From NCBI GenBank assembly GCA_027314465.1, contig DAHVAU010000004.1, positions 1 through 37,576 on the forward strand: DNA of 37,576 nt, in the 5' to 3' direction. Numbering within the stretch: the first letter of the stretch is position 1; every line of letters begins with the position of its first letter. Shown piece after piece: positions 15,693 to 37,576 of this stretch. A program made the position numbers and the translations under genes. The notes under the pieces are model-generated. The model did not search any database. It was not told the origin of the DNA and saw only the letters and a program-made list of their open reading frames with translations. This stretch comes from Candidatus Micrarchaeota archaeon. Lineage in GTDB: Archaea; Micrarchaeota; Micrarchaeia; Micrarchaeales; CABMGC01.

Positions 15693-15710
15693 GTATGCCA
15701 TTCAAAGCAC

Positions 15711-16472: not shown

Positions 16473-16486
16473 TATACCACCATACT

Positions 16487-16876: not shown

Positions 16877-16880
16877 CTCA

Positions 16881-18688: not shown

Positions 18689-18692
18689 ATGA

Positions 18693-19514: not shown

Positions 19515-19518
19515 CCCA

Positions 19519-20346
19519 TCACATCATGTTCTGCGTCTGCTGGTTCTGCGAGTACCTCATGAGCTCGCTTATGGTCGTAGGCGGTATCATGTATTCAGGC
19601 TCCACCAGCACAAGCATGTCCGCCCCAGTTACCACTGATGCGCTCACCCCCACAGTTGCACTTATTCCTGCTGCAACCTCATCGGCCTTGAGCGATATCA
19701 TGTTCATCGCCTCTTCCTCTGTGCCTCCGAATACGGTGACTGCCGCATACACATCAAGGGCCTGCGAGTTTGCCTTTGAGACGCTGTCAAGCAGGTTGTG
19801 CCACATCGTCACCTCCCCCTTTATCCTGTCGAGCTGGGGCTTGCTGGCGTTCTTGTCAAGTTGTATGGCGTTGTACCTGGCCTCGGCCTCGTTTAGCCTG
19901 GAAGTCACCCTGGCTATGTAATCGTCTTTGTTTATGGAGTAGAGCTGCGAGGTCACCTTTATCGGGGTCTTGCTTATGCTTACCATCCTTGAGAACACAT
20001 TGGAGAAGTTGAACTTCTGTTCGTCATTCATCTCGGTGGACGAACTGTACACAGGCACCTTGATGAATGATGTCGCGTATATGAGGTTGTCCTTCCTTAC
20101 CAGTATCGCGTTGCCGTTCTGCGACATGTAGAAGGCATCGTCTGGATCTAGCACCACGCTGCCGCTCTTGGATCGCAGCACAGGCGCATACAGGTAGTAG
20201 TAGTACCTGGTCGCGAATGCCAGCACAGCGGCAATAAGCGCTATGATGGCTAAGAGTAGAGCCACCGGGCTCAGGCTGGCTGGAGGCAACCCAGTAAGCG
20301 TTGCAAAAACGAAACCAACCGCAGCGATGACAATGAAGATTACCAT
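19519..20346 (-). CDS. membrane-anchored protein (N-terminal TM hairpin plus ~200-aa soluble domain), paralog of the 18693-19514 product
   Basis: ATG 20346 (MVIFIVIAAVGF...); the ORF-track TTG is at 20367. There are two TM helices. The shared blocks are QNGNAILVRKDNLIYATSFI, TPIKVTSQL and GGTEEEAMNMISLKADEV, ending in MIPPTTISEL. Confidence 0.75.
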   Translation of the reverse strand: MVIFIVIAAVGFVFATLTGLPPASLSPVALLLAIIALIAAVLAFATRYYYYLYAPVLRSKSGSVVLDPDDAFYMSQNGNAILVRKDNLIYATSFIKVPVYSSSTEMNDEQKFNFSNVFSRMVSISKTPIKVTSQLYSINKDDYIARVTSRLNEAEARYNAIQLDKNASKPQLDRIKGEVTMWHNLLDSVSKANSQALDVYAAVTVFGGTEEEAMNMISLKADEVAAGISATVGVSASVVTGADMLVLVEPEYMIPPTTISELMRYSQNQQTQNMM

Positions 20347-20377
20347 TTCTTGATTGCTGCTGGGCAACTGACCACTG

Positions 20378-22922: not shown

Positions 22923-24023
22923 CTAGACAAGTGTGCGCAGCCTTCCCGAGGTCTTTGCCATCCCCCCCAGTATCTCGGCTATCTGGGTCACCAGCGCATA
23001 TGTGAGAGCTATGATAAGCGCTGGGAAGAACAGTATGGAGAGCCAGAATGCCCCGAAAGTGCTCTGTAGCTGCCCTATGGTCGATACGAGAGGGGCGCTG
23101 GCTGACAGGGAATTGTCTATGAGGCCGCTTGGGGATGCGCCATATCTGTTGAGCGCAGTCTGCGATTGCGAGAGCTGCGTGTAGATGTTGGTCGATGTGT
23201 AGTAGTATGCTATCGAGAACAGGGTAGGCATTATAAAGTAGAATCCTATGGCCATGGCTATCATCATGCCGCCCAGGTTGCGCGTAGGTATCAGAGCCCT
23301 GAATATGATTCCAGGCACAAGGAATACAGGTATTGCGGCGTACATGAAGAATATTATCAGGTAGAACTGCGTGTACAGCGACAGCATCGCCTCGAACATG
23401 AACGCCACCACGACCCATGACGGCCAGAAGAACAGGTACTGGAAGGCGAGAGCCCACACCGGCGGTATGGTAGGGAAGTTGAATCCGCCAACTTCGCCCT
23501 CGAGCTTGAAGCTGGTGTAGCTGTAACCCAGGGTGCCAAGGTAGAAGACGTGGGATGCAGTGGTGTATGTTGTGTTCAGAGTGGTTGCTATGTAAGTAAG
23601 CGATGCATCAAACGGATTGATCGGGCCTGCAGTAACTGCCGGGAGTATGCCGAACATGACAGCGCTTATGAACACGAACAGTATCGCCATCATTGCCGTT
23701 GCTGTGGCCTCGTACAGCTCTCCTGTGCCAAACGTCCTGAGCCTGTCGTTTCTGAACGCCACTCCGAACATGAATAGGACAGCCGCTATTGAATAGGAGA
23801 ACATCACAGCGACCATCATCAGCGGGAAGTACTTGTGCCATTCGCTTATTATTGAGGGATTTATGTACTTGCAGTACCACGGAGCCACATTCTCTACTAT
23901 TCCTCCGGCAGCAGGATTTCCACAGTACTGGCTAAGTATGCCCTGCGCGTGCAATAGGCCGGTTATGCAGAGCACCGCTACAAACGCAATGGCCAGGGCG
24001 AATGTTATCCTCTTTGGCATCAT
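22923..24023 (-). CDS. polytopic membrane protein, paralog 6 of a six-member tandem family (VirB6/TrbL/CedA-like role hypothesised)
   Basis: 366-aa ORF whose ATGATG start overlaps the upstream stop by 4 nt. It has a signal-like N-terminus (ITFALAIAFVAVLCITGLLHAQG) and about 7 or more TM segments. The family signature is GIIFRALIPTRNLGGMMIAMAIGFYFIMP. Confidence 0.8.
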   Translation of the reverse strand: MMPKRITFALAIAFVAVLCITGLLHAQGILSQYCGNPAAGGIVENVAPWYCKYINPSIISEWHKYFPLMMVAVMFSYSIAAVLFMFGVAFRNDRLRTFGTGELYEATATAMMAILFVFISAVMFGILPAVTAGPINPFDASLTYIATTLNTTYTTASHVFYLGTLGYSYTSFKLEGEVGGFNFPTIPPVWALAFQYLFFWPSWVVVAFMFEAMLSLYTQFYLIIFFMYAAIPVFLVPGIIFRALIPTRNLGGMMIAMAIGFYFIMPTLFSIAYYYTSTNIYTQLSQSQTALNRYGASPSGLIDNSLSASAPLVSTIGQLQSTFGAFWLSILFFPALIIALTYALVTQIAEILGGMAKTSGRLRTLV

Positions 24024-25117
24024 AGTATCCTCGTTAATATCGAAAACAGGTCCATCCTCTCCCCTATGGACCTGGAGAAGTCGACTATGAAGGCGTCGAC
24101 CACCACCAGATTGAGGAGCGGTATGAATACTAACCCTGCTCCTATAAATCCAGCATACATGATCAGTGGAGCAAATATCTTGCTGAACACTGCATTAGTA
24201 TAATTAAGCGGATTGACTATATTCAATAGAGACTGCACGAGGAAGTTCCCAAGGGTGTCAAGCGGCACGGCTACCCCGCTGGTGGCGCCGCCTATGGCCG
24301 CATGCGCTATTGCAGAGTCAAGGAATCCGTACGTAAGGCCCACCATCAACGGATACACAACGCCTATGCCCAGGCCGAAGGCTATCATAGCCCCGCCGAA
24401 GCTTTTGGTGACCCCGAAAGACCTTGCTATAAGACCTATTATGATGAATGCGCTGAACAGGAGCATTGATGAGCTTATCAGGTACTGCTGCAGCAAGGAG
24501 GCGATGGAAAGCGCGTAGTATACCTGCATGTAAGGTATGATGTATTGGTGAACGAACACTATCGGGAGCAGCTGTATGGTGAAGCTGATGCCTATTCCGC
24601 CGTAGCCTAGATTTACCGGTATTGCCGGCGCTATGCCCCCTGCAAGCGAGAACCAGAACAGGGAGGTGCTGAACTGGGCAAGATCCGTATTGTATTGGTA
24701 CATGTCGCATGTTGCCACGCCGAAGATATCTGCTACGTTTGACGGCGATGGAGTTGCGCCTGCGTTGGCAGGATTGCATGCCTGCGGCAGCAATCCTATC
24801 GAATTCAGGGGCGTCACAGGATTGACGCATATGAGCATTGTGGAGAAGCTCACGAAGATTATCGCGAATACTATAGTGACCAGTCCGTCGTATATCTTGG
24901 CCCTTGCCCATACCTTCATGTCATTTCTTCCGAGCGCAGGGGAGAGCATGTAGAACAGCGCTGCAATGCCTATTATGACAGAGACGGCCATTAGCACTAT
25001 GGGGAACCATACATTGGGAGTGGCGGAGAAGAAGCTGACCACATTGTTGGTGTATCCCCCTCCAGCGAATGGGCACACTGCAAGTTGCAGCATCCATGGA
25101 ATTATAACTTCTAGCAT
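24020..25117 (-). CDS. polytopic membrane protein, paralog 5 of the tandem family
   Basis: 365-aa ORF with an ATG start 1 nt after the upstream stop. The family signature is GLIARSFGVTKSFGGAMIAFGLGIGVVYP. Cys-containing predicted external loops include QACNPANAG and ATCDMY. Confidence 0.8.
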   Translation of the reverse strand: MLEVIIPWMLQLAVCPFAGGGYTNNVVSFFSATPNVWFPIVLMAVSVIIGIAALFYMLSPALGRNDMKVWARAKIYDGLVTIVFAIIFVSFSTMLICVNPVTPLNSIGLLPQACNPANAGATPSPSNVADIFGVATCDMYQYNTDLAQFSTSLFWFSLAGGIAPAIPVNLGYGGIGISFTIQLLPIVFVHQYIIPYMQVYYALSIASLLQQYLISSSMLLFSAFIIIGLIARSFGVTKSFGGAMIAFGLGIGVVYPLMVGLTYGFLDSAIAHAAIGGATSGVAVPLDTLGNFLVQSLLNIVNPLNYTNAVFSKIFAPLIMYAGFIGAGLVFIPLLNLVVVDAFIVDFSRSIGERMDLFSILTRIL

Positions 25118-25118
25118 A

Positions 25119-26300
25119 TCACACCACCCTTCCGAGCATCCTGGCGCCCTGCAGCGAAGGCGCCCCTAGTATTGTTCCCAGCTTCTCTACCATCTCGTAT
25201 GATACTATTAGCGAGATTATTAATCCGATTAGGTCTATGCCTATGAACTGCAGTCCCTGGATAAATGCGAATACGTTCTCGTAGTATACCTCGCCGAAAT
25301 TGTAATCCATCAGGCCCAGTATCTCCTTGCCTGACGTGGTCAGGAAGCTCCCTGAATTGCACAGGCTTGAGAACGTAGTGTTGAACGTGCTGGAGTCGCA
25401 AAAGCCCTTGCCGCTAAGGCCGTGCCCGGTCACTCCGAGGAACGGGAACATCAATGCCGGGAATATCAGGTAAAACGATATGAACAGCGCTATAAGCGAT
25501 CCTCCGGCAGGCCGCGTCCATGGGAAGGAGCGCAGCACTATGCCAAGGTAGAGGAACAGTGGGAATAGGTAGTATATGGTGAACAGTATCACTATGATGA
25601 ACATGCCCATGAACATGCCCCCGAAGTAGATCGTCTGCTCGTCCCATAGCAGCTGTATTAGCAGCGCGATTCCCTGGAACGGATCGAACGCCACGCCGAA
25701 GTTGTTTGGCATTATGGAGATCCTGAATCCCCCTGTCGGAGGCGATGAGGTGGCGAATGCATTGGCTACCATAAGATTCACGTATATGCCAAACCAGTTC
25801 TCCAGACTGGACGTTATCACATTTGTGTTTATGTCATTGCACAGATTCACATACATGGTGTTTATGCTGCCTGTGCCTGACGAAGCCGATCCCACACCTG
25901 TTGAGGATGTCGCTATGTTGGAGAAGAAGGACAGCGATGCAGGGGCGAATGCCATGGCTGTGCCTATGACGGCTATTATGGCGAGATTGCCCCCTGCTTC
26001 TACCATCTCGGCCTTGCTGAAATTGATAAGCTGGTCCAGATGGAATGCTGTGCCTATTGCGTATGTGACGCCAACTATCGAGAGCATTGCTAGTATTATC
26101 AGCACTGCGATGGTAAGCATCGAGCTGCCGAGCGATGAGATGCCGGTTCCGGGGCTTGTTATTGCGGCAAGATTGCCCGCTGGGGACAGTGAGGCTGATG
26201 AAGAGAAGAAGTTGTTGCAGTTCACTACTGATATGGCGTTTGACGCGCCGATGAGCACGGCGAAAGCCAGGAGCGTTAGTGCAAATTGCCTGTATCCCAT
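25119..26300 (-). CDS. polytopic membrane protein, paralog 4 of the tandem family
   Basis: 393-aa ORF with an ATG start and a signal-like N-terminus (FALTLLAFAVLIGASNAIS). The family signature is GIVLRSFPWTRPAGGSLIALFISFYLIFP. Confidence 0.8.
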   Translation of the reverse strand: MGYRQFALTLLAFAVLIGASNAISVVNCNNFFSSSASLSPAGNLAAITSPGTGISSLGSSMLTIAVLIILAMLSIVGVTYAIGTAFHLDQLINFSKAEMVEAGGNLAIIAVIGTAMAFAPASLSFFSNIATSSTGVGSASSGTGSINTMYVNLCNDINTNVITSSLENWFGIYVNLMVANAFATSSPPTGGFRISIMPNNFGVAFDPFQGIALLIQLLWDEQTIYFGGMFMGMFIIVILFTIYYLFPLFLYLGIVLRSFPWTRPAGGSLIALFISFYLIFPALMFPFLGVTGHGLSGKGFCDSSTFNTTFSSLCNSGSFLTTSGKEILGLMDYNFGEVYYENVFAFIQGLQFIGIDLIGLIISLIVSYEMVEKLGTILGAPSLQGARMLGRVV

Positions 26301-26310
26301 CTAATCCAAC

Positions 26311-27948
26311 TCATATGAACCTGCTCAGCCCTATGATGGTGGTCTCTCCCCCCATCAGCGAAGAGATCCCCACCATTGCCGATATCATCATCAATACGTT
26401 TATTATAGGAATTATGAACGCCGACACCGCTATAATTCCATACATATTTGCCAGGGCACTAAGCGCCGCGGCTATGTTGTACGGGCCTATCCTGGCCACG
26501 CATGCGCCATTGTTTGCAGTAAGCAGGCCCAGAGGCGACGACAGCGGAGATATTCCGGTGAAGAACGACAGTATGAAAGTTACCGGCAGTGATATCTCCT
26601 GCACTAGAGTCTGCGCAAGCGCCTCTGACTCAAAAGGCCATATCGTAGTGGCGCCAGCCTGGATGTTACATGAGTACAGATTGATAACGTCGCCTGCGTA
26701 TGGATACACGTAGAAGTTTATGTTGCGCTTCACGTAGCATGTAGCCGCAGTGCTGAATGGATTCCCCCCGCTGATGAAAGGCTGCTCGCCCTGCGATACG
26801 CTTGAGCACGCATTTAGAGTGGTGGCAGTTCCTTTTGCAGGGGTCAGACCCTTAAGTATGTAGCTGGTCTTGAGCGAATCGGCGCTAGTGTAGCAGTACA
26901 GCACGTTGTTACCAGCGCTGTTCGCAAGCTGCCCGAAGCCGCACAGCGATACTGCAGGTATGGAGCTTGCCCCTATGAACGAGTTGGGGTTGAGGTTGCT
27001 GAGCGATGAATATTCGAAGAGGAACACCGTAGGGTATATCACTACAGCGACCACTGTCGCTGCAATCAGTAGTCCCCCTATTCTCCTCGTGAAGGGTATG
27101 GTGCGCAGCACTATTCCTCCTGCAAGCAGGTACGGCCATCCCATAAGCACTATCAGGATGAGCACCATCTGTATGACGAACATATACAGGGCTATTGTGC
27201 CCTCAGTGGTTATGGCAGGCATTATCGCCCTCTGCAGCACGTAGCCGCCGTAGGGATTATATGAGAGCTTCAGTGTGGGCACAACGTCAGGAACCGGGAG
27301 GTCGCACTCCGCAGGTATGCACACAACTATGAAAGGCCGCAGGTTCCTGAGAAAGAACAGCAGGCTGTCGAAGTTGTACAGCGAGTTCAGCTCCATTGCC
27401 GACTGATTGCTCATGTTTGCGAACACAACGTACGTAGAGGCGAGTCCGTAGTCAATCTGCCTTGTGACTGGAGTGACTCCTGCATTGCTGTCTATCAGGT
27501 ACTTGCATACGGCAGTGGTAGGCCCTGGCAGGTTCTGGGCGTTGTCCTGGTATACGCTATTGAAAGTGCTTATCTGCGAGTTCGGAAGTATGTTGTTGCA
27601 TATATTGTTTATCTGTGATGTGCCCCCGCTTCCAAGTATGCTGGAGAAGCTTATGCTGGAGCTTGTGCCTATGAGAAAGAAGAACCATACTAGCAGCACT
27701 ACGATGAGTATGCTTGCGCCGGCGTGCTGCAGCTCCGATATGGCGCTGGCCTTCACCCTGTTATTGTTTAGGAGCCACCCTATCATATAGTATATCGAGG
27801 CCAACAGCACGGCCAGTGTGGAGGCTATGATTATGACAGGTATCCAGTTGTTGAATACATTATAGTTCGTGGCTATGCTCGACTGCGCGCCTGCGGCTGA
27901 TGAGAGGACCAACGCAGCTGCAATTGCGAATGCTATCGTAAGTCTCAT
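26311..27948 (-). CDS. polytopic membrane protein, paralog 3 (largest, with an expanded Cys-rich external region)
   Basis: 545-aa ORF whose ATG overlaps the upstream stop (ATGA). It has a signal-like N-terminus (LTIAFAIAAALVLSSAAGAQS). The family signature is GIVLRTIPFTRRIGGLLIAATVVAVVIYP. There are many Cys residues in predicted loops. Confidence 0.8.
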   Translation of the reverse strand: MRLTIAFAIAAALVLSSAAGAQSSIATNYNVFNNWIPVIIIASTLAVLLASIYYMIGWLLNNNRVKASAISELQHAGASILIVVLLVWFFFLIGTSSSISFSSILGSGGTSQINNICNNILPNSQISTFNSVYQDNAQNLPGPTTAVCKYLIDSNAGVTPVTRQIDYGLASTYVVFANMSNQSAMELNSLYNFDSLLFFLRNLRPFIVVCIPAECDLPVPDVVPTLKLSYNPYGGYVLQRAIMPAITTEGTIALYMFVIQMVLILIVLMGWPYLLAGGIVLRTIPFTRRIGGLLIAATVVAVVIYPTVFLFEYSSLSNLNPNSFIGASSIPAVSLCGFGQLANSAGNNVLYCYTSADSLKTSYILKGLTPAKGTATTLNACSSVSQGEQPFISGGNPFSTAATCYVKRNINFYVYPYAGDVINLYSCNIQAGATTIWPFESEALAQTLVQEISLPVTFILSFFTGISPLSSPLGLLTANNGACVARIGPYNIAAALSALANMYGIIAVSAFIIPIINVLMMISAMVGISSLMGGETTIIGLSRFI

Positions 27949-29171
27949 ACGTTACCCCAGAATGGCCCCACGGCCATCATCCTGTTTACCGAATTCAGTC
28001 CCTTGGTAAGCCCTTGCGCAAAGGCCAGCACTATTGCAAGGTCAATGCCTATCATAACTATGCCCTCGAAAAGGTACTCCGCAGTCTTTATTCCAAAGTC
28101 TATGGTTACCCCTGGCACATTGAACAAAGTACTGAACATCAGGGTTATTCCTTGCGAAAGCCCTCCTTCTGAAGAGAACGCCCCTGAGAGGAATGACGTG
28201 GTCAGCGGTATGCCGCTAAGTAGGCCGCTCCCGGTGTTGAAGCTCTGCGGCTGCGAGTTGAAGAAGTTGCTTGCCGGAGAGGCCCCAAGCTGGTAGGGGA
28301 ACGTGTACTGGTTGTATGGGTTGCACACCTGCCCTGCAACAGTGCACGGAGTGTTTATCCACGTTACAACGTAGGTATTGAACAGTATGGCAAGAGGCAG
28401 TATGAAGTAGAATCCTATGGCAAGGGCTAGGAATGTGTCTGACGACTCTCTGAGCTTGGGCCCGGCGAAAGGTATTGAGCGCATTGCTATGGCTACTGGG
28501 ACTACAATAGTCAGCGCAGTAGTCTGTATTAATGAGAGCAGCAGGTACACAACGAATATCACTCCGAAAGACACGATTATTAAGGGCGTGAAGGCCGCCA
28601 CCAGAGCGCCGCTGAATCCGTAGTATATGGTGAACAGTTCGGTACCAAGCTCCACGTGCAGGAAAGCAGAGAGATATGTATTCACTATCTCATCTACAGC
28701 GGAGCCGAGGTTTCCTGCTATTGTTATGAGTACCGATTCTGAGTATATCTGCTGGAATAGCGACAGCCCTTTTGAGAACATCAGATTGCCAAGGTAGAGC
28801 TGCGCAAACTGCATCGGGTCCTGGTATGTGGCATGCAGCACAGGAGCCGCAGATGCAGTAAGAGATGAGCCTACCTGACATGTTGTCGCTGCTATTGCGA
28901 TGAGTATTATGACTATGATTATGGCTATGACGCCCTGGAAGGCCTCGTACTTCGCCGCGCCCTTCATCTTCTCGCGCATGGAAACAGGAAATATGTTGGC
29001 GAACGAGTATACCGCTGCGGATATCATGAACGATGCAAGTACGATAAGCAGGTTTATCTGGATCCAGGAATTTGTGTTGAGCGTGCCGCTAGCCCCGGTG
29101 GTGCCACCGAAAGTGCAGGCCTGCAGGTAGGGATTCTGCGCAGCAGCAAGTACCATTGGTAGGATGTTCAT
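27945..29171 (-). CDS. polytopic membrane protein, paralog 2 of the tandem family
   Basis: 408-aa ORF whose ATG shares 1 nt with the upstream stop (TGATG). It carries a divergent form of the signature, AIAMRSIPFAGPKLRESSDTFLALAIGFYFILP. Confidence 0.8.
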   Translation of the reverse strand: MNILPMVLAAAQNPYLQACTFGGTTGASGTLNTNSWIQINLLIVLASFMISAAVYSFANIFPVSMREKMKGAAKYEAFQGVIAIIIVIILIAIAATTCQVGSSLTASAAPVLHATYQDPMQFAQLYLGNLMFSKGLSLFQQIYSESVLITIAGNLGSAVDEIVNTYLSAFLHVELGTELFTIYYGFSGALVAAFTPLIIVSFGVIFVVYLLLSLIQTTALTIVVPVAIAMRSIPFAGPKLRESSDTFLALAIGFYFILPLAILFNTYVVTWINTPCTVAGQVCNPYNQYTFPYQLGASPASNFFNSQPQSFNTGSGLLSGIPLTTSFLSGAFSSEGGLSQGITLMFSTLFNVPGVTIDFGIKTAEYLFEGIVMIGIDLAIVLAFAQGLTKGLNSVNRMMAVGPFWGNV

Positions 29172-30445
29172 CAGCTCGCCAACCTCAGTTTGCCTCCCAG
29201 AGAGAGCTTTATGCTTCCCCCAAATACCCTAGCTATGTTGTCAACTATCGGATAGATTATGATTATGTCGATAGCAAGCAGTAGGAGCTGCACGATCAGA
29301 TATAGCCCGTACTGCAGTATCTGGTTCATGTAGTGGTAGATGGCCTTGGTGCTGAATACTGCAGAAGATGACCCTATGGAATCCGCGACATTGCCTATTG
29401 TGCCTATTGCAGAGTTTATAAGGGCACATCCGGTTCCAAGCACTGTAGTCACAACTGTGCCAAATACCCCTCCACCTATGGTAGGGCATGTGAGCGGACC
29501 TGATACAACTGCAGAGGGCTGCTGCAGCGGAAGGGCGCTGTCAAGAGCCTGCGTGACGGGATAATTGAACAGCACAAGCACTGCAGGGAACACCACGGCC
29601 ATTGCAACACCTATGGCAAGCAGCGTGCCGCCTATTCCCCTTACGAACGGAAGGGCGCGGAACACCAGGCCTATTGGTATGAAGAACGCCAAACCTATGT
29701 AAGCGAGTGCAGGAAGCAGCGTTATGACGCCTATCTCCATGGACGTGTATGGAAACATTATGAAGTTTGAGAGGTCGTTGATTATTGAACCGAAGAATGC
29801 GATGTGGAAGTTTCCTGTCTGCAGGGCCCAATTGCCGAATGGGAGGAACAGGACGCCGAAGTTTATCCCGATTGCAATGGTTGTGAGAAGATCCGTAGGG
29901 GATGGGACATAGAAGCTGACCTGGAGCGTTGACCAGAACCCTGTGCCAGAGGCCATCTGCCCCAAAAGGCCCCATATGTTCACAACGTTTGCATTTACGC
30001 TGCATAGATACCCCTCTGCGCCGTTTATAAGGTAACCCAGGTTTGCTACGCCAGGAGCTCCAGCCCCAACCGTCTGCGGACTTGGAGATATTGCATTGGC
30101 CAGGTTGCCGATGAATATTATGATCGCATAGATGCTAATTATTATCAGCGCCGACTTGCCTATCTCCCAGTACTCCCCCTGCAGCCAGTTCCTGATGCCC
30201 AGATGCGGGAAGAGCCTGCTTATCATGTACCCTATTGCGACTACGTCAAAAGATATAGTAAGGGCCAGGAGCGCCATGGCAACGGCATTGAAGTAGTTGA
30301 AAGACACTGGAGCTATGGTAGGACTGGCATTGCACTCGGCAGGAACAGGTATTGTTGGAGTGGGAGGTATGCCTGTAGCAGCATATGACATACTAATAAG
30401 AAGGCACAGTAGGACACTGACCGATGCTACCGCTCGCAGCCGCAT
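29171..30445 (-). CDS. polytopic membrane protein, paralog 1 of the tandem family
   Basis: 424-aa ORF with an ATG start and a signal-like N-terminus (AVASVSVLLCLLISMSYAATG). The family signature is GLVFRALPFVRGIGGTLLAIGVAMAVVFP. Confidence 0.8.
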   Translation of the reverse strand: MRLRAVASVSVLLCLLISMSYAATGIPPTPTIPVPAECNASPTIAPVSFNYFNAVAMALLALTISFDVVAIGYMISRLFPHLGIRNWLQGEYWEIGKSALIIISIYAIIIFIGNLANAISPSPQTVGAGAPGVANLGYLINGAEGYLCSVNANVVNIWGLLGQMASGTGFWSTLQVSFYVPSPTDLLTTIAIGINFGVLFLPFGNWALQTGNFHIAFFGSIINDLSNFIMFPYTSMEIGVITLLPALAYIGLAFFIPIGLVFRALPFVRGIGGTLLAIGVAMAVVFPAVLVLFNYPVTQALDSALPLQQPSAVVSGPLTCPTIGGGVFGTVVTTVLGTGCALINSAIGTIGNVADSIGSSSAVFSTKAIYHYMNQILQYGLYLIVQLLLLAIDIIIIYPIVDNIARVFGGSIKLSLGGKLRLAS

Positions 30446-30561: not shown

Positions 30562-31299
30562 TCAGTGCCTAAGCAACCTGAACCTGTCCATGTACGCCTG
30601 AGCCTGGAAGATGACGAAATACGGAACTACGAGCAGGGAGTTTATGATCAGCGCTATGTACCTTGACCAGAGGGTGCCGAACAAGCCTATGCACGCCACA
30701 TCCACAAGAGACACTATGACTGTAGCAAGCACAAGCCATATGATGAAGTACTGCGGCTCGTGGAGCACAAGCCTCAGGCTGTCAACAACCGCCCGTGACG
30801 CCTTCTTGTTGTCTACAACTATTGCGCTGGGAGCATAGAATATCACAAGGAAGAGCACAAAACCAACGACGGCTGTTAGCAGCGTCGATATCCCAAGTGC
30901 ATACCCAACCATGCTAGCTACCATGAGTATCAGAGTGTATACAAGCAGGACGGCGAACACCTTCCATATGTACTTCTCAAGATCCTCGAATACCCTCTTG
31001 CCAACTGACGAGTGAGTCCTCTTTGACTTGACCAGCAGGCTTATCAGCACAAAGGCGAAGCTTAGGAACAGAAGGGAGAATATAGTCGATGCTGTGATCA
31101 CTGCAAGGCTCACCAGGTCTATGTTCCCGTTCGCGAATATGCTTGCGCTCCTAAGGAATATGGCTCCGGCGCTTATGTAGGTTGGAAGCGGGGCGAGCAA
31201 TGGTATCGCGAAGGCTATCACGAATGGTATGGAGAATATTATGGCTAGGCCTATCCTCTCCCTGTAGACATTCCAGGATTCCCTTATCACACCTGCCAA
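30562..31299 (-). CDS. six-TM integral membrane protein, unknown function
   Basis: 245-aa ORF with no ATG near its 5' end (TTG 31299 or GTG 31290). It has six evenly spaced hydrophobic helices and no recognisable catalytic motif. Confidence 0.65.
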   Translation of the reverse strand: MAGVIRESWNVYRERIGLAIIFSIPFVIAFAIPLLAPLPTYISAGAIFLRSASIFANGNIDLVSLAVITASTIFSLLFLSFAFVLISLLVKSKRTHSSVGKRVFEDLEKYIWKVFAVLLVYTLILMVASMVGYALGISTLLTAVVGFVLFLVIFYAPSAIVVDNKKASRAVVDSLRLVLHEPQYFIIWLVLATVIVSLVDVACIGLFGTLWSRYIALIINSLLVVPYFVIFQAQAYMDRFRLLRH

Positions 31300-31342: not shown

Positions 31343-33208
31343 CTATCTTGCAGGAGGAGCAGTGACAGTAAATGAAGGCCCCACATAGTAATGGCCGCTG
31401 TTGTAGATCACGGTGTTGAGATAGGCAGTACCGGCAGTTATGTTGGATGGTATGGTTGCATTCAGGGCATAAATGCCGTTTGACAGGTGCATCAGGTTGG
31501 GATTCGTGGCGCATGGATAGGCTGCGCAGTTCAGGCTGCCTTTGAATAATCGCTGTGCAGAAAGGCCGTAGAAGAGCCCTCCCTGACCCTGGTACTCTAT
31601 CATGAATGCGAGGTATGCACTGGTACCTGGACCGCCATACAGCACGTCTGCACGGTACAGCACTGTGCCATTATTCTGAAGCTCTGCGGTCTGGTTGTAC
31701 AGATGTATGCTGAACCCGCTTTCATAAGAAGCATGGGAGAGAGCTACAACAGCAACTATGGCCGCTATTACAACGAGCGTAGCTACGTAGGCAGCGGCCT
31801 TGCCTGCGGCCGTATTAACGTACGATCTGAACCGCCCTATTGGCCTGTGTCCAGAGTCAATGCGGCATACCAGCGTAAAGAGGAGGGCCAGCAGTATGTA
31901 GTACACCAAGAGCAGATGGTTAATGAACAGCAGAGGTATCATTGCAAGTAATGGTATTGCCCTCCTGTCGTTGGCATAGAGCGATACGATCACCATCAGC
32001 GCCGTAGACAGGGCGATAAGTATGGGATACGAATGCATGCCTATTGGATACTGCGAGGCTATTAGGTAGCCTATGGAGGACGATGGCTGTGGCAGTATGT
32101 TGCCAACAGTAAGTAACACTGATGATATGTAGCTGTATGGTGCGCTAATGATGAAATACCCATTTATCAGCATGAAGATGGCCCCTGCCCCAACAATCTC
32201 GCGTATGCCGCTTCTCCAGCCCTTGTTGTTTATGGTATAGACTATGAACAGCAGCATTATTGGCCAGAGCAGCTCCTGCAGCGATACTGCAAGTCCAATT
32301 ATAAGCCACGAGTACTTCTTGCTAGCTGCAGTGTAGAGAAGCAGCACCAAGGCAAGCATCAGAAATGTCTGCATTGATGCAATGAACATTGAGAATGCAC
32401 CGAACAGCACGTAAGCTGCGAAATTAGGTCTGAAGGGCTCGTCTTTTTTCATCACCAGAGCGAGTGCACCTATAAAGATCAGGAAGAATACAACCGCCTG
32501 GGTATGCATGTACAACTGGGCTATCGCCTGGAAGCCATACCCGCTGAACGCAAGATAGAACGGCACTGACACGAGGAAGTATAGGGCAGGATAATCAACG
32601 GCGCCTATCACAGTGTTGTCCTGGGTGAATGTTATCCTCCCGGTAGTGACATTTGATGTGAACAGAGTCTGGCTTATGGAAGTGGTGTATGGATTTATGC
32701 CCTGCAGCATGTGCTGCACTGCGTAGTATCCTATTACTGTCTCGTCATCAGCAGCGTAAATCACGTAGTGGAGATAGAATACCACCACTATGGCGATGAT
32801 GGCTATTGCAAGCGCTGCCTTAATCCTCCTGTCCTTTATGAACAGCGCGGCGCTGAGCGTCAGGGCCAGTACCATGAAAATGCATGCATAAGCAAACGCA
32901 TCTTCAAGCCATGATAGCCAATATGCAGTCAACTGACCCGTTGATAGGTAAAGAAATGAGGATACTGCAAATAGTACCAGTGATACTAGGAAAAGTACGT
33001 TGAACAGCCGCTTTCCAGCGCGGTCCGTTGCATGCGCAGCGTTCAATACTGCCAGAGCCACCACTACAGCGGCAAACGCAGCGTCGACCAGAGCCCCTGA
33101 CCAGAGATATTTCACTGGCCCGGCTATGGATGCAATAATAAATAAAACGAGGGCGATGAGGAGCCTGGCAGTCCTGTCAGGAACCTGCCGGCCCCTTCGC
33201 TCTCGCAT
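31343..33208 (-). CDS. large polytopic membrane protein with C-terminal external domain; GT-C-fold (PimE/DUF2029-like) glycosyltransferase candidate
   Basis: 621-aa ORF with an ATG start and about 13 TM segments. The loop AADDETVIGYYAVQHMLQGINPYT....AVDYPALYFL resembles the acidic-loop / G-x-N-P-Y / Y-P-P arrangement of DUF2029/GT87-type GT-C enzymes. The C-terminal ~130 aa are soluble and carry sequons (NQT, NGT, NAT, NIT). Confidence 0.7.
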   Translation of the reverse strand: MRERRGRQVPDRTARLLIALVLFIIASIAGPVKYLWSGALVDAAFAAVVVALAVLNAAHATDRAGKRLFNVLFLVSLVLFAVSSFLYLSTGQLTAYWLSWLEDAFAYACIFMVLALTLSAALFIKDRRIKAALAIAIIAIVVVFYLHYVIYAADDETVIGYYAVQHMLQGINPYTTSISQTLFTSNVTTGRITFTQDNTVIGAVDYPALYFLVSVPFYLAFSGYGFQAIAQLYMHTQAVVFFLIFIGALALVMKKDEPFRPNFAAYVLFGAFSMFIASMQTFLMLALVLLLYTAASKKYSWLIIGLAVSLQELLWPIMLLFIVYTINNKGWRSGIREIVGAGAIFMLINGYFIISAPYSYISSVLLTVGNILPQPSSSIGYLIASQYPIGMHSYPILIALSTALMVIVSLYANDRRAIPLLAMIPLLFINHLLLVYYILLALLFTLVCRIDSGHRPIGRFRSYVNTAAGKAAAYVATLVVIAAIVAVVALSHASYESGFSIHLYNQTAELQNNGTVLYRADVLYGGPGTSAYLAFMIEYQGQGGLFYGLSAQRLFKGSLNCAAYPCATNPNLMHLSNGIYALNATIPSNITAGTAYLNTVIYNSGHYYVGPSFTVTAPPAR

Positions 33209-33235: not shown

Positions 33236-33598
33236 TTAGGCGCAGTTTGTGGTAGTGCTAAGTCCACCAGAGGTTGCTATGAGGCTTATGACTCCAGGGG
33301 CGATTATCACTATTATTAGGCCCACTATTCCTCCGACTATCATTCCAAGAGACCAGCCCTGTAGGTTGCCTCTGAGGTTTCCAGCCGCAGGCAGCATGTG
33401 CGCTATTGCGTACATTACGCCTCCTAGTATGAACAATACTAGTGAGATTATTCCCACTACTGTCCTTACAGTAGTTATTATATTACATAGCGAGCTGCTC
33501 ACTGCCGTTGAGGCAGCAGCTGCATTCACGAGCGAAACAACGCTCATTACGCTTACCATTGCCATTACGACAAGGTACAGTCTATTCAGCAATGCCAT
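33236..33598 (-). CDS. VirB2/TrbC/CedA1-like conjugative-type pilin candidate
   Basis: 120-aa ORF, first gene of the cluster.
- Long signal peptide MALLNRLYLVVMAMVSVMSVVSLVNAAAA, followed by S.
- Hydrophobic helix 1: LCNIITTVRTVVGIISLVLFILGGVMYAIAHML.
- Short basic loop: PAAGNLRGNLQG.
- Hydrophobic helix 2: WSLGMIVGGIVGLIIVIIAPGVISLIA.
- Short tail: TSGGLSTTTNCA. Confidence 0.7.
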   Translation of the reverse strand: MALLNRLYLVVMAMVSVMSVVSLVNAAAASTAVSSSLCNIITTVRTVVGIISLVLFILGGVMYAIAHMLPAAGNLRGNLQGWSLGMIVGGIVGLIIVIIAPGVISLIATSGGLSTTTNCA

Positions 33599-33630: not shown

Positions 33631-33640
33631 TTTATATAGG
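33631..33640 (-). promoter_or_regulatory. TATA/box-A candidate for the pilin-led operon
   Basis: The minus strand reads GAAACCTATATAAATCAG. The TATA lies 33-42 nt upstream of ATG 33598, in the divergent intergenic region shared with the AbrB-like gene. Confidence 0.45.
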
Positions 33641-33729: not shown

Positions 33730-33752
33730 CTTATCTATATAACAGTGGTTTC

Positions 33753-34075: not shown

Positions 34076-35248
34076 ATGGCTGAGCAGGAAATCAAGACAA
34101 GCATTGACGCCCTGATGGCGTACCTGAACGAACATGGAGAGTCAAACTCAACAGTAGTGTCTTCGGCGCTTGGAGTAAGCGAGAATGTAGTGCTTGGATG
34201 GGCAAACGTGCTCGAGAAGGCCAAGCTGATAAAGATACTCCACAAGTCCGGAAGAGTCTTCCTTGCGCCCCTTGGGGCCAAGACTGCGATAGCTGAAGGT
34301 GGCAGCAGGCAGGAGGAGAAGTCCAGCGCCGTGATGGAGATCGAATCTCAAGTAGAGATAGTAAAGCAGGTCTCCGCAAGGATAGAGGACCTGAACAAGT
34401 CCCTTGCAAGCGTAGACTCCGTATTTGACACGAAGTACAGGAACGCAAAGAAGATGCTTGACAAGCTCAACTCTGTTGAGGGCGCAGTTGACAAGGCAGA
34501 GAAGAAGATAGCAGGTCGCGGATCCAAGGTAAAGGACATATCTGACAAGGTCGAGAGCGGAATGGAGGGCATGCAGAAGTACATGGATCAGCTCGAATCG
34601 TTCTCTGTTGACACCAACAATGCAAGCGCCATATCGCAGGAGCTTCACGCGCTGCTCAAGACCTATGAGAAGAACGAGGCAGACATGTCAAAGAGTCTTG
34701 AGGCAGTCATATACCAGTACAGGAGGAATGCACTGGACATATCGCGCACAATACGCGAGAAGCACGACCAGCTCAGGCAGGTGCTTGAGTACGAGGACAG
34801 ACAGATCAGACAGTACGAGCACGTAGCCACTGACTATAAGAGGAGCACAGATGCGCTTATCAGGCATGCAGAGAGCATAGAAAAGGACGTGATGGACGAG
34901 GTCGAGAAGGGAAATGCAGATCTTGACAGGCTCGCGCAGGCGGCAACTGTGCAGGTTGCTGGAGTGAAGAGCATAGTTGACGAGATGAAGAAGGATCTGG
35001 GCGGCATCTCTGAGCTTAACGCGCAGCTGCAGGGCCTGAAGAAGGATCTTGCTGATGTTACGGCCATGAGGGATTCGCTGCTCTCCGAGCTCAAGGGCAT
35101 ACAGCAGGAGATCAAGGAGAGCAGGGAGGACTGGCTGAGTTCAGGGATAAAGAAGCGTGCTGCTGGGGCTGCGAGCGCAGCAACGGAGCTTAAGGGAAAG
35201 ATCGGGAAAGTGGAATCGGGGTTCAAGGAGTTGGGCGACAGGAAATGA
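34076..35248 (+). CDS. N-terminal winged-helix plus long coiled-coil protein
   Basis: 390-aa ORF with an ATG start. The N-terminus, IDALMAYLNEHGESNSTVVSSALGVSENVVLGWANVLEKAKLIKILHKSGRVFLAP, is wHTH-like. The remainder is a heptad-rich, charged coiled coil. The gene lies immediately upstream of the secretion ATPase. Confidence 0.7.
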   Translation: MAEQEIKTSIDALMAYLNEHGESNSTVVSSALGVSENVVLGWANVLEKAKLIKILHKSGRVFLAPLGAKTAIAEGGSRQEEKSSAVMEIESQVEIVKQVSARIEDLNKSLASVDSVFDTKYRNAKKMLDKLNSVEGAVDKAEKKIAGRGSKVKDISDKVESGMEGMQKYMDQLESFSVDTNNASAISQELHALLKTYEKNEADMSKSLEAVIYQYRRNALDISRTIREKHDQLRQVLEYEDRQIRQYEHVATDYKRSTDALIRHAESIEKDVMDEVEKGNADLDRLAQAATVQVAGVKSIVDEMKKDLGGISELNAQLQGLKKDLADVTAMRDSLLSELKGIQQEIKESREDWLSSGIKKRAAGAASAATELKGKIGKVESGFKELGDRK

Positions 35249-35312
35249 TTCGCTTTGGACTTAGGGCATATGTGGCTGTGCACCAGGCTGCGCGCGTGAG
35301 GATTGGTTCTTG

Positions 35313-36824
35313 ATGGCAGAGGATGTCGTTAGCGGCGTGTTGAAGGAGTACGCAATGTACAAGCTAAACGCCAACGGCATAGAGGCTACCATAAGGATAA
35401 TAGACATAGGCAAGTATGTTCCAGAATACAACGTGAGCGTGCCGGGTCTTGGAGAGGCTACAAGGATACTGCTCACCTCGCTAAGAACAGAATTGCTTAC
35501 CCTCGTTCCGATAGACACAAGCAGGATATCTGATTCCGAGTATGCCAAGGAGCTGAACAGGAAGTACACGAGCGCCGCCTCTGTTGTTATAGACAAGTAC
35601 CTCCCTGGCACGCCCAAGAGCACAAAGGAGGTGCTCATAGCCTACGTAATAAACATCATGCTCGGGCTTGGGGATCTCGAGGTGCTTCTGGCCGACGAGG
35701 ACCTTGAAGAAGTGGCGGTGAACTCGTCAAGGGATGGAGTGTGGGTGTTCCACAAGAAGTTCGGATGGTGCAAGTCCAATGTGAAGATGTACAGCGAGGA
35801 GGCGATATACGACCACGCGGAGCAGATAGGCAGGAGGGTCGGAAGGCAGATAACAACGCTCTCGCCGCTCATGGACGCAGAGCTTACAGATGGATCCAGA
35901 GTCAATGCCACGCTCTACCCAGTCTCCCAGGGAGGGAACACGATCACGATAAGAAAGTTCTCGAAGAACCCGTGGACCATGCCTGCGCTTGTAGCGTCAA
36001 ACTCTGTATCCGCAGAGGTGGCCTCCATACTATGGGTGTGCATACAGAACGAGATCAGCGTTGTGATCTCAGGTGGAACGGCAAGCGGAAAGACAAGCTT
36101 CCTGAACGCAATGAGTATATTCATGCCCACGAACCATCGCATCATATCCATTGAAGAGACCAGGGAACTGACGCTGCCTGAATTCCTGCAGTGGGTCCCG
36201 ATGCTAACAAGACAGCCGAACCCTGAAGGCAAGGGAGAGATCAACCTCTACAACCTCATGATAAATGCGCTAAGGCAGCGACCGGACATAATACTTGTAG
36301 GAGAGATCAGAACCAAATACGACGCCCAGACGCTCTTCGAGGCAATCCACACAGGTCACGCAGTGTACGGCACCATACACGCAGACAACGTGCAGGACAC
36401 CGTGGTGAGGATGACCAACCCGCCCATAGAACTGCCCAAGATAATGCTCAACTCGATGGGAGGGATAATATCGCTGTTCAGGCACAGGAGGCTTGGAATA
36501 AGGAGGACTCTTGAGTTTGGGGAGATGACAAACTCGGGAGATGCAAACGTGCTGTACAGGTGGAATCTGAGGAGCGACAACTTCCCGCAGATATCAAACA
36601 TGACAAGGCTTGCGGAGGTCATTTCGCTCTACGGAGGATACACGTACAACGAGCTCATGGAGGATATACACCAGAAGAGCAAGATACTCGACTGGATGGT
36701 GGCCAACAAGCTTACGGACGTTAACTCCGCAGGCAACTTAATAGCTAAGTATTATAAGGACAAGGATAAGGTAATAAAGTTCGTTGGGGATAATGTCAAG
36801 TACACCCCAGACCTGATCGACTAG
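35313..36824 (+). CDS. type II/IV secretion-system ATPase (FlaI/PilB/GspE/VirB11/TadA family)
   Basis: - Walker A: ISGGTASGKTSFLNA.
- Asp box: RIISIEETRELTL.
- Walker B: PDIILVGEIR.
- His box: TGHAVYGTIHA.
There is an N-terminal ~200-aa domain, as in archaeal FlaI-like ATPases. The ATG at 35313 follows the TTG at 35310. Confidence 0.9.
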   Translation: MAEDVVSGVLKEYAMYKLNANGIEATIRIIDIGKYVPEYNVSVPGLGEATRILLTSLRTELLTLVPIDTSRISDSEYAKELNRKYTSAASVVIDKYLPGTPKSTKEVLIAYVINIMLGLGDLEVLLADEDLEEVAVNSSRDGVWVFHKKFGWCKSNVKMYSEEAIYDHAEQIGRRVGRQITTLSPLMDAELTDGSRVNATLYPVSQGGNTITIRKFSKNPWTMPALVASNSVSAEVASILWVCIQNEISVVISGGTASGKTSFLNAMSIFMPTNHRIISIEETRELTLPEFLQWVPMLTRQPNPEGKGEINLYNLMINALRQRPDIILVGEIRTKYDAQTLFEAIHTGHAVYGTIHADNVQDTVVRMTNPPIELPKIMLNSMGGIISLFRHRRLGIRRTLEFGEMTNSGDANVLYRWNLRSDNFPQISNMTRLAEVISLYGGYTYNELMEDIHQKSKILDWMVANKLTDVNSAGNLIAKYYKDKDKVIKFVGDNVKYTPDLID

Positions 36825-36832
36825 ACAAAAGG

Positions 36833-37438
36833 ATGCCAATGTACTACAACGACTGCGTGCAATACATAAGTTCCGTAGAGGCCTACGACTCGCAGGACAG
36901 GAGCGCCACTGCAGACGTGTATGACTTCGGGGAGCAGGTGCAGATACAGGAGATTGACAGGGCCAAGGCAGCGTCGTTGATCGAGAGCATAGAGGGACTG
37001 GAAGGAGGTACTGCGCAGGGCGCATCCCAGGCGCCCGAAGAGCAGGCTTTGGGACCAAAGCAGAAGGTGCCTCCGCAGAGGGTCACGGGCAGGGCAGGGG
37101 AGCAGGCAGGCAAGGCAGTCCACGCTGCAGGGGACCTATCAAAGCTGATGGCAAATACCGGAGCAGGCGCGGGAAGGGCAGTAAGCGAGCTTTACGCCGT
37201 GGCGGGAAGGGCAGGCGAGAAGATCTCAAAGCGCGTTGGCAGCAAGGGCAGGAAGGAGAAACTGGTTGCTACAGAGCTGTCGCTGCAGGACCAGATTAAC
37301 GAACTGGAGAAGATAGGCCTTGGGCTAGACGGCAACGCATACGGCCCGGAGCAGATATCGATAATCAAGACAGAGATCTTAGGGCTGCTGAAAAACAGGG
37401 GCAAGCCGCCAGCAAACGAGTTCCAGAAGGGGCTTTAA
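36833..37438 (+). CDS. low-complexity Ala/Gly/Glu-rich protein, unknown function
   Basis: 201-aa ORF starting 9 nt after the ATPase stop. It has an internal GRAGE repeat (TGRAGEQAGKAV / AGRAGEKISKRV). There is no TM segment and I recognise no motif. Confidence 0.5.
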   Translation: MPMYYNDCVQYISSVEAYDSQDRSATADVYDFGEQVQIQEIDRAKAASLIESIEGLEGGTAQGASQAPEEQALGPKQKVPPQRVTGRAGEQAGKAVHAAGDLSKLMANTGAGAGRAVSELYAVAGRAGEKISKRVGSKGRKEKLVATELSLQDQINELEKIGLGLDGNAYGPEQISIIKTEILGLLKNRGKPPANEFQKGL

Positions 37439-37488
37439 AAGCTAAGAGACGAGAGGCTCGATGAAGTGGCCTCCAAACTGGGATTGTG

Positions 37489-37576
37489 ATGCTTGGTAAA
37501 AAGAAGTTGGTGAACAGACAGATAGTGGGATTCACTAAGCCCAGGAAGATACTGTTCTTCAGGATAAAACCAAAGC
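37489..37576 (+). CDS. 5' end of a CDS running off the window (MLGKKKLVNRQIVGFTKPRKILFFRIKPK...)
   Basis: The ATG at 37489 stays open to the window end. Its position after a FlaI/PilB-like ATPase would suit a FlaJ/PilC/TadC-type platform protein, but only 29 basic residues are visible. Confidence 0.3.
   Translation, partial: MLGKKKLVNRQIVGFTKPRKILFFRIKPK

Follow-up and report, generated by a model that had tools for sequence, protein, structure and literature searches.

To our knowledge, only two archaeal systems derived from type IV secretion systems (T4SSs) have been described outside plasmids, namely Ced in the Sulfolobales and their relatives, and Ted in the Thermoproteales. Both belong to Thermoproteota and both are tied to DNA import. 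They share no recognisable sequence similarity with each other (PMC9905601). Here, we describe a 17-gene cluster headed by a gene for a pilin precursor of 120 amino acids (aa), located in a stretch of 37,576 nucleotides (nt) from the genome of a Candidatus Micrarchaeota archaeon (contig DAHVAU010000004.1, positions 1 to 37,576, hereafter the window). We consider it rather probable that this pilin is the major subunit of a chromosomally fixed, T4SS-derived, Ced/Ted-like apparatus of Micrarchaeota, and the cluster may be a third archaeal system derived from conjugation machinery. In the literature on Micrarchaeota or other DPANN archaea, we found no described VirB2-like pilin or T4SS-like cluster.

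In its build, the cluster is closest to Ted. Like the Ted system of Pyrobaculum calidifontis (Thermoproteales; PMC9905601), it is chromosomal, non-mobile and, in our reading, T4SS-derived. TedC and the window pilin have in common a Sec signal (cleavable in TedC, predicted to be so here), a two-helix hairpin and a gene at the head of the locus. Furthermore, in both loci multi-pass membrane proteins follow the pilin, an ATPase (VirB4-type in Ted, of the HerA/VirB4 clade here) is encoded a few genes away, and a membrane partner (a candidate one here) has a pilin-like N-terminus. However, TedC has no detectable sequence similarity to the window pilin in the PDB, six membrane paralogues stand in place of one TedA, and the ATPase is shorter than that of Ted, HerA/CedD-like, and has no recognisable VirB4 N-terminal domain. 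The window pilin carries a terminal cysteine pair, whereas neither cysteines nor disulfides are mentioned in PMC9905601. The hosts differ as well, one being a DPANN symbiont and the other a free-living hyperthermophile.

Ced is likewise a domesticated T4SS-like system; it serves DNA import, which is a possible role of the cluster as well. Both include paralogous membrane parts (CedA and CedE in Ced) and ATPases of the HerA clade (CedB and CedD in Ced), and CedD is the best NCBIfam match of the cluster ATPase. The Sec signal of the window pilin is clear, whereas CedA1 does not undergo signal-peptidase processing. Unlike Ced, the cluster has a single ATPase, and no sequence similarity to Ced was detected. 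What sets the cluster apart from both systems is a number of extra conserved genes without recognisable relatives, the cysteine pair of the pilin and the occurrence of fused and tandem pilins among its relatives.

Among bacterial counterparts, VirB2 of Agrobacterium resembles the window pilin by its PF04956 profile, long signal peptide with an A-x-A motif, hairpin and single basic residue in the turn. Close to where helix 1 begins, VirB2 also has a conserved cysteine (C64, invariant in alignment A3), but it is without a C-terminal cysteine, and it is plasmid-borne in a diderm bacterium with a full VirB1-11 set. Patescibacteria, or candidate phyla radiation bacteria, offer a different parallel (PMC12102498). 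Like Micrarchaeota, they live as ultra-small episymbionts, and in both groups a T4SS-like system that is not plasmid-borne is near-universal and inherited vertically, with pilins recognised by VirB2-type profiles. However, they are monoderm bacteria of the MPF-FATA class with recognisable VirB4, VirB6 and further components, whereas the Micrarchaeota cluster detectably shares only the pilin and the ATPase superfamily.

The pilin and its cysteine pair

The pilin open reading frame (ORF) was confirmed on the minus strand, with an ATG at 33598 and a TAA stop codon at 33236-33238, and its translation is MALLNRLYLVVMAMVSVMSVVSLVNAAAASTAVSSSLCNIITTVRTVVGIISLVLFILGGVMYAIAHMLPAAGNLRGNLQGWSLGMIVGGIVGLIIVIIAPGVISLIATSGGLSTTTNCA. 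It overlaps a 121-aa ORF of the plus strand (33249-33614); the evidence from homology and gene order concerns the minus-strand reading. PF04956 is the sole Pfam match of the window pilin (22.0 bits, E=1.9e-4), with residues 4-106 aligned to positions 8-97 of the 98 in the profile. When 5.8 billion proteins were searched, 77 homologues were returned, with E values from 1e-17 to 1e-56. The named ones come from metagenome-assembled Micrarchaeota genomes; several already carry a precomputed PF04956 match, and two were named 'VirB2 component (pilin)' by the Joint Genome Institute (JGI). When members of the 78-sequence family alignment (A1) were scanned one by one against Pfam, PF04956 was matched by 59 of the 78 at E <= 0.01 (best 1.7e-8), the next family, PF18895 (T4SS_pilin), by six, and every other family by one member at most. 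In a wider alignment of 103 sequences with identities down to 26%, PF04956 was matched by 30 and PF18895 by 21.

Two relatives that are 54-56% identical to the window pilin, P0023 and P0036, scored 33.2 and 35.0 bits, respectively, above the PF04956 gathering threshold of 27.9 bits. Five members scanned in forward orientation reached 25-35 bits, with two over the threshold, while reversed versions of the same five, used as a control for pilin profiles matching any hydrophobic hairpin, gave no PF04956 or PF18895 match even at E <= 1. Membership in PF04956 thus follows from the scores of close homologues and not from that of the window pilin itself. These results support placing the pilin family in the VirB2/TrbC superfamily at the level of profiles, at a distance from any characterised pilin too great for direct pairwise proof. 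Together with the Sec-type signal described below, they support the original prediction, made from the DNA letters without database searches, of a pilin candidate of the VirB2/TrbC type and not of the type IV pilin type.

The N-terminus, MALLNRLYLVVMAMVSVMSVVSLVNAAAA followed by S, shows the n-, h- and c-regions expected of a Sec-type signal. The original prediction had put the length of this signal peptide at 29 residues, but the cut site is not unique, as cleavage after A26 is equally compatible with the -3/-1 rule. A conserved alanine of the family aligns to A26, and in homologues the signal region closes with ASA or AFA and is followed by Q. The mature pilin is therefore predicted to be 91-94 aa long, cut after A29 or A26. 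AlphaFold2, supplied with 78 sequences, returned a hairpin with a mean predicted local distance difference test (pLDDT) score of 83.8, in which a helix (residues 2-68) is followed by a break (69-72), a second helix (73-110) and a coil (111-120). R76 stands at the start of helix 2. The expected layout of two helices joined by a basic loop was thus recovered as a hairpin, except that the loop is shorter than PAAGNLRGNLQG and contains one basic residue instead of several. P70, G73, Q80 and G81 are invariant in A1, and position 76 is K or R in 103 of the 103 sequences of the wider alignment.

As predicted, the window pilin contains exactly two cysteines, C38 near the mature N-terminus (its ninth residue, given a cut between residues 29 and 30) and C119 in the penultimate position. 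In A1, C119 is invariant and C38 is conserved in at least 90% of the sequences; in the wider alignment, the C38 position is a cysteine in 95 of 103. A HMMER scan of 1.84 billion representatives gave 361 clusters at E <= 0.001, from which 230 complete pilin modules in 222 cluster representatives were used to count cysteines. An automated count found both cysteines in 215 of the 230 modules, and 13 of the 15 flagged modules also proved to be paired when inspected by eye. A lack of conservation in orthologs had been named beforehand as a finding that would speak against the prediction; after inspection, the pair was present in about 228 of 230 modules. P0192 is without both, and the first module of P0168 has no cysteine at the usual place before helix 1. 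The stretch between the paired cysteines is itself free of cysteines in 215 of 230 modules, and 133 of 168 single-module precursors have exactly two cysteines. Whereas the spacing between the N-proximal cysteine and the turn is fixed (32 residues in 127 cases), the C-terminal cysteine is found anywhere from 35 to 60 residues beyond the turn, in keeping with a flexible tail. Of 168 precursors, 66 end with this cysteine and 32 have it in the penultimate position, and in 52 it precedes 5-10 often glycine-rich residues. These additional residues recall the C-terminal peptides that are cut from TrbC and TrhA.

Some relatives carry more than one pilin module. P0078 (1071 aa), P0079 (632 aa) and P0080 (342 aa) contain seven, four and four tandem modules per chain, respectively, preceded in P0078 and P0079 by a large N-terminal outside domain. 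Each module retains its own N-proximal and C-terminal cysteine, with about 15-25 residues from the C-terminal cysteine to the N-terminal cysteine of the next repeat. A possible function of these poly-pilins is to seed a filament covalently or to serve as its adaptors. We know of no tandem-module architecture among VirB2-type pilins. Seven other relatives (P0105, P0183, P0221, P0163, P0190, P0202 and P0097) join a single pilin module to a large Cys/Ser/Thr-rich or PKD/Ig-like outside domain, mostly N-terminal but C-terminal in P0097. P0202 has three PKD domains (E=1.5e-32). These fusions look like adhesin-bearing minor pilins. For this family, we found no description in the literature of pilin modules in tandem (up to seven) or fused to PKD/Ig domains.

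The topology predicted for the hairpin places both C38 and C119 outside the cell, where they should be extracellular because the turn bears the only conserved positive charge and because relatives carry large N-terminal PKD/Ig-like domains. Furthermore, tandem modules each have their own pair, an arrangement that the topology allows only when all modules begin and finish on one side of the membrane. From the helix limits of the AlphaFold2 model, we estimate that C38 faces residue 103 of helix 2. As this helix ends at residue 110, C38 would be seven residues, or about 10 Å, short of its end, a gap that the nine-residue tail could bridge within one chain. A putative disulfide between C38 and C119 is thus well supported by conservation and predicted topology, and it was consistent with every test made here. 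The original prediction had described such a bond as non-enzymatic, for which we found no support.

In its effect, such a bond would resemble the link of the cyclic pilins. TrbC of RP4 and TrhA of R27 are cyclic, and their joined ends are needed for assembly of the H-pilus (TrhA) and are thought to be stabilising (PMC12037004, PMC13434634). The original prediction had listed TrbC and Agrobacterium VirB2 as cyclised pilins, which is right for TrbC, as for TrhA, but not for Agrobacterium VirB2, found to be acyclic in three cryo-electron microscopy studies (PMC9905601; PMC12037004). TrbC and TrhA are VirB2-family hairpins with covalently joined ends, a condition that the window pilin would reach by its putative disulfide. 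However, the link of TrbC and TrhA is a backbone peptide bond made by a signal-peptidase-like enzyme (TraF or TrhF), whereas that proposed here is a side-chain disulfide. Unlike the bond in TrbC and TrhA, it would join mature residue 9 to the penultimate residue without forming a true head-to-tail ring. Pfam scans of the cluster proteins recognised no TraF-like gene or peptidase S26-like domain.

Gene order and partner proteins of the cluster

The 17 genes of the cluster occupy the minus strand between 33598 and 13099, and neighbouring genes overlap or are separated by no more than 164 nt. They encode, in order, the pilin, proteins of 621 and 245 aa, six multi-pass proteins, an 811-aa leucine-rich-repeat-variant (LRV) protein, proteins of 282 and 273 aa, a 508-aa ATPase, and proteins of 101, 129, 253 and 815 aa (Table 1). 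Gene order was compared by tblastn of all window proteins against 87 related loci, and the order was the same in most of these Micrarchaeota loci, as far as each contig extends. The best conserved parts are the pilin (78% median identity) and the ATPase (71%). With a TATATAAA box 33 nt upstream of its ATG, likely serving the cluster as an archaeal promoter, the pilin gene is plausibly the first of a transcription unit.

The ATPase belongs to the FtsK/HerA/VirB4 superfamily and is the candidate motor of the apparatus. Its gene is found 14.5 kb downstream of the pilin gene, on the same strand and in an uninterrupted gene array. Its Pfam matches are DUF87/HerA (3.8e-15), TraG P-loop (3.3e-13) and AAA_10 (3.1e-12). 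Among NCBIfam models, it matches CedD (7.6e-22), TraC (2e-19), a VirB4-like CD1110 model (7e-16) and CedB (2.8e-15), all far below the family cut-offs. PDB matches include HerA (about 1e-10) and a VirB4-like protein (4ag5, 2.3e-8). We found 379 relatives of this ATPase, counting one genome per species, the best 80 of which are 66-84% identical to it and nearly all labelled as Micrarchaeota. The pilin is thus genetically linked to a HerA/VirB4-clade ATPase, and representatives of Micrarchaeota species share this gene order.

Pairwise hhalign comparison of the families of the six multi-pass proteins gave E values from 1e-10 to 2e-26, which identifies the six as paralogues. In four of them, the N-terminal hairpin is also matched by the pilin profile. 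The pilin profile aligned to the 408-aa family with 91.7% probability (P=7.8e-7), pilin residues 45-103 falling on residues 37-93. It also matched the 365-aa family over 94 columns that include both cysteine positions (P=9.6e-5), the 393-aa family (P=3e-4) and the 545-aa family (P=1.4e-3). The 424-aa and 366-aa families remained at background (P=0.012 and 0.02), and five other membrane or cluster proteins used as controls gave P>=0.03. Profile-profile comparison was needed to reveal this relation, since the pilin profile gave nothing in hhalign when set against the single 424-aa and 621-aa sequences. The 408-aa N-terminus was also matched by HMMER (E=4e-6) among the six-frame ORFs of the window. 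In the 408-aa family, C19 and C98 are 100% conserved (C98 at least 90% in another alignment) and flank the pilin-like hairpin. Each paralogue family has conserved cysteines of its own, for example C19/C98 or C28/C154, and none has a database annotation. The AlphaFold2 model of the 408-aa paralogue (pLDDT 77.9) contains helices 44-63 residues long. A membrane protein with a pilin-like N-terminus is also found in the pairs CedA/CedA1 and VirB6/VirB2 (Beltran et al., PMC9905601). As the pilin-like N-terminal hairpin mirrors these pairs, the six paralogues are, by analogy, candidate counterparts of VirB6, CedA and TedA.

The remaining genes are conserved to varying degrees. The gene for the 621-aa protein always comes next after the pilin gene; its product gave no Pfam, NCBIfam or useful PDB match and matched a PHROG annotated as 'membrane protein' (2.2e-5). 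The LRV gene is the only variable gene of the cluster and appears to be a lineage-specific insertion, since it was found in only 4 of 87 loci. The families of the 282-aa and 273-aa proteins match each other (hhalign E=3.6e-12), are present in 66-67 loci and have no Pfam match. Position and size recall the bitopic proteins of the VirB8 type, a likeness without profile backing. The 253-aa protein has a C-terminal winged-helix-like domain, and the 815-aa protein, for which the PDB gave no useful match, has an N-terminal membrane anchor. Matches to HTH_Cmi2_C were obtained for 3 of the 93 cluster proteins scanned and are not tied to a particular family. An inverted repeat (CGCTG-CCGT-CAGCG on the plus strand, 33219-33232) is located in the 27-nt gap between the pilin stop codon and the next start codon. 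It may form a transcript-stabilising or attenuating hairpin that raises pilin output over that of the downstream genes.

The surroundings of the cluster are those of a chromosome. In 53-55 of 87 loci, the cluster is adjacent to the gene for topoisomerase VI B, usually in convergent orientation, and the flanks of the window carry housekeeping genes (CDC48, S6e, eIF2-gamma and TopoVI). No integrase or relaxase domain was found among the window proteins, and no relative of the pilin was found in IMG/VR viral contigs or in PLSDB (72,556 plasmids). Therefore, the cluster is chromosomal and inherited vertically.

On the same grounds, an origin as a mobile element was considered and rejected. A tRNA-Pro gene (313-385) lies 12.7 kb from the cluster, with housekeeping genes between.

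Several loci depart from the layout of the window. In L057 (14875-15971), the ATPase block is followed downstream by another pilin gene and by an additional copy of the 245-aa gene, and some contigs carry two pilin paralogues (P0006 and P0024; P0045 and P0071). The block of membrane proteins is missing from its place upstream of the ATPase on the complete chromosome OY969902.1 (L031), which indicates that the cluster can be split or rearranged. Three loci that carry the cluster are labelled as Saccharimonadales bacterium (L055), 'bacterium' (L058) and Marsarchaeota (L022), probably through binning or labelling errors.

Table 1. Positions in the window of the pilin gene, its elements, the other cluster genes and the divergent operon.
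Feature	Coordinates	Strand	Evidence or remarks
Gene for 120-aa VirB2/TrbC-like pilin precursor	33236..33598	-	ORF, PF04956, 77 homologues, AlphaFold2
Predicted Sec-type signal peptide, residues 1-29	33512..33598	-	R6, hydrophobic core, A27-A28-A29 before S30
Codon of C38, N-proximal, outer end of helix 1	33485..33487	-	cysteine conservation
Codon of C119, penultimate residue	33242..33244	-	invariant in A1; A120 then stop
Turn region, residues 70-81 (PAAGNLRGNLQG), including R76	33356..33391	-	alignment A1, AlphaFold2
TATATAAA box, likely cluster promoter	33631..33638	-	nearest base 33 nt upstream of pilin ATG
621-aa protein, about 14 hydrophobic segments, C-terminal outside domain	31343..33208	-	ORF, hydropathy
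245-aa multi-pass membrane protein, conserved third gene	30562..31299	-	weak DUF5904 match only
Six tandem multi-pass paralogues (424, 408, 545, 393, 365, 366 aa)	22923..30445	-	hhalign
811-aa leucine-rich-repeat-variant protein	20436..22871	-	Pfam LRV 1.3e-8
Two paralogous proteins (282, 273 aa), one to three hydrophobic segments, just upstream of ATPase	18693..20367	-	hhalign
508-aa FtsK/HerA/VirB4 superfamily ATPase, candidate motor	17183..18709	-	Pfam, NCBIfam, PDB
Four tail genes (101, 129, 253, 815 aa)	13099..17186	-	order conserved in 63-79 loci
129-aa protein: zinc ribbon and one membrane helix	16487-16876	-	conserved CxxC…CxxC, 78 loci, right after ATPase
Type IV pilus-like operon: 390-aa coiled-coil protein, T2SSE ATPase, 201-aa protein	34076..37576	+	PF00437 1.1e-32

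Assembly model, alternatives and possible role

If the pilin is the major subunit of a Ced/Ted-like apparatus, its precursor would enter the membrane through Sec and lose a signal peptide of 26-29 residues. The mature chain would then reside in the membrane as a hairpin of two helices whose ends both face outwards, while the K/R76 turn would lie at the cytoplasmic side. A disulfide between the two outer cysteines, most likely formed inside a single subunit, would fasten the C-terminal tail to the upper end of helix 1, with an effect resembling that of the head-to-tail peptide bond of TrbC and TrhA. A platform made of the six paralogues would take subunits from the membrane, and the pilin-like hairpins detected in four of them may seed the first layer. 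The single HerA/VirB4-clade ATPase would power polymerisation into a hollow filament whose lumen would be lined by the basic turn. The cargo could be DNA passed between cells, as in Ced and Ted, or material exchanged with a host.

Several results weigh against such an apparatus. The window pilin itself scores under the PF04956 gathering threshold. Similarity to VirB2 pilins, anticipated by the original prediction at the level of profiles or structures, was found with Pfam profiles but not with any solved pilin. Indeed, neither the single sequence nor two family profiles matched PDB chains, deposited conjugative and archaeal pilins included, at E <= 10, and Foldseek of the full-length pilin model against the PDB returned only generic helical hairpins of non-pilins at E > 2. 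The Foldseek outcome is uninformative, because the helix of the signal peptide merges with helix 1 and the fold is of low complexity. Profile-profile similarity to VirB2 was not significant either (hhalign against 40 Agrobacterium-type sequences, P=0.018, helix 2 only), although this narrow alignment (sequences at least 53% identical to VirB2) is a weak comparator. The tail of the pilin model, which would form the disulfide, is at low confidence (pLDDT 62). In alignments to the TraC/VirB4 models, the cluster ATPase covers no more than their C-terminal ATPase part (423-737 of 800), and its best PDB match is HerA. None of 10 window proteins and 93 orthologues matched PF04610 (TrbL/VirB6), and Foldseek of the 408-aa model gave no VirB6 structure and no significant match (best TTYH2, E=0.06). 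Finally, none of the cluster proteins could be recognised as a relaxase, a coupling protein or a counterpart of VirB3, VirB5 or VirB8; in Pfam, NCBIfam and PHROGs, no T4SS family was found for the other cluster proteins or the 93 orthologues.

These gaps leave room for another, distinctly less probable explanation, in which the pilin stays in the membrane as a small hairpin subunit of a complex with the six paralogues, acting for example as a transporter or cell-to-cell channel, and the cysteine pair would merely stabilise the outside face. This hairpin also forms part of multi-pass proteins, for which extrusion is impossible, no homologue of a pilus tip, adhesin or assembly factor was recognised in the cluster, and no structural match to pilus subunits was obtained. 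CedA2 of Sulfolobus, a small two-helix Ced protein of unknown role, would be a precedent (PMC11868833). Yet the best Pfam matches of the protein are pilin families, and its gene comes first, behind a strong TATA box, and encodes the most conserved protein of the cluster, a pattern expected of an abundant polymer subunit. Furthermore, the relatives that carry PKD/Ig domains or 4-7 tandem modules are easier to understand as decorated or seeded filaments. A different question is which cysteines would pair. A bond from C38 of one subunit to C119 of the next, giving a cross-linked filament, is improbable in our view. It would suit the position of both cysteines, since in known conjugative pili the outer ends of the hairpin are the places of contact between subunits at the pilus surface, as well as the widely varying distance (35-60 residues) between turn and C-terminal cysteine, reminiscent of a flexible reaching arm, and the short spacing of cysteines from adjacent repeats in the poly-pilins (about 15-25 residues). 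However, the C19/C98 pair flanks the hairpin of a 408-aa multi-pass paralogue that need not polymerise, which favours an intramolecular bond, and by our AlphaFold2-based estimate the nine-residue tail can reach C38 in one chain.

That the pilin could be an unusual type IV pilin, served by the T2SSE/T2SSF machinery encoded nearby, was considered because the pilin and pilus operons adjoin each other in divergent orientation, both in the window and in L001, L002, L004 and L005. This we regard as very improbable. In L006 and L007, the two are not adjacent, and MoxR, DUF2079, L21e and TBP genes flank the pilin operon instead. The pilin has no class III prepilin signal but a Sec-type peptide of 26-29 residues with an A-x-A motif, followed by two membrane helices, and its Pfam matches are of the VirB2 type and not type IV pilin families. 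The non-adjacency in L006 and L007 and the lack of a class III signal therefore argue that the pilin is not a substrate of the neighbouring pilus machinery.

With the pilin taken as the subunit of a T4SS-derived apparatus, a more speculative role can be proposed. The cluster could be the long-sought host-contact apparatus of DPANN symbionts, a disulfide-stapled hollow pilus or a membrane platform joining the Micrarchaeon to its host, with lipids, nucleotides, proteins or DNA as cargo, rather than a device for DNA repair between Micrarchaeota. We hold this to be unlikely on present evidence. In cryo-tomograms of Micrarchaeon ARM-1 and its host, nanotubes of unidentified nature were seen, together with a 21-nm barrel in the envelope of the symbiont (PMC11329633). 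The nanotubes, attributed to the host, measure 6.7 nm outside and 4.4 nm inside (PMC11329633), and this thin wall makes them an ill fit for a VirB2-type tube. If the host-contact role were true, it would give a molecular identity to the 'pili-like' connections between ARMAN and Thermoplasmatales, could identify the 21-nm barrel of the ARM-1 envelope, and would provide a parallel to the near-universal chromosomal T4SS of Patescibacteria (PMC12102498).

If the cluster is indeed a third system, 'domesticated conjugation' would extend to obligate symbionts with genomes of about 1 Mb, throughout a DPANN phylum. That a 20-kb, 17-gene cluster is retained in such genomes suggests that it must be important. 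The disulfide, if real, would represent a second route, beside the peptide bond, to joining the ends of a conjugative-type pilin. Many Micrarchaeota live in acid mine drainage. As cultured co-cultures exist (Mia14, ARM-1), the hypothesis is testable.

Divergent type IV pilus-like operon and remaining window

The operon divergent from the pilin gene (Table 1) is followed past the end of the window by two T2SSF platform genes, as seen in L001, L002 and L004, and genes for 900-1100-aa Laminin_G_3 proteins come next in other genomes. It matches the type IV pilus loci with LamG genes described in Micrarchaeon Mia14 (PMC5498576). In Sulfolobales, the Ups type IV pili work together with Ced (PMC11868833), and the frequent juxtaposition of the two operons recalls this pairing, by analogy only.

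Between the pilin gene and the pilus operon, we observed an 89-aa ORF on the plus strand (33699-33968) without Pfam match at E <= 0.1. Among the 87 loci, it was found only in L001, a contig with an identical pilin gene. Judged by eye, the C-terminal half of its product resembles an AbrB/SpoVT-type DNA-binding fold.

The other end of the window (1-13075) is ordinary chromosome and carries genes for tRNA-Pro, DUF2666, CDC48, S6e, NUDIX, eIF2-gamma, a DHH phosphoesterase, a KH-domain protein and topoisomerase VI B. An unannotated ORF of 385 aa lies beside the topoisomerase VI B gene.

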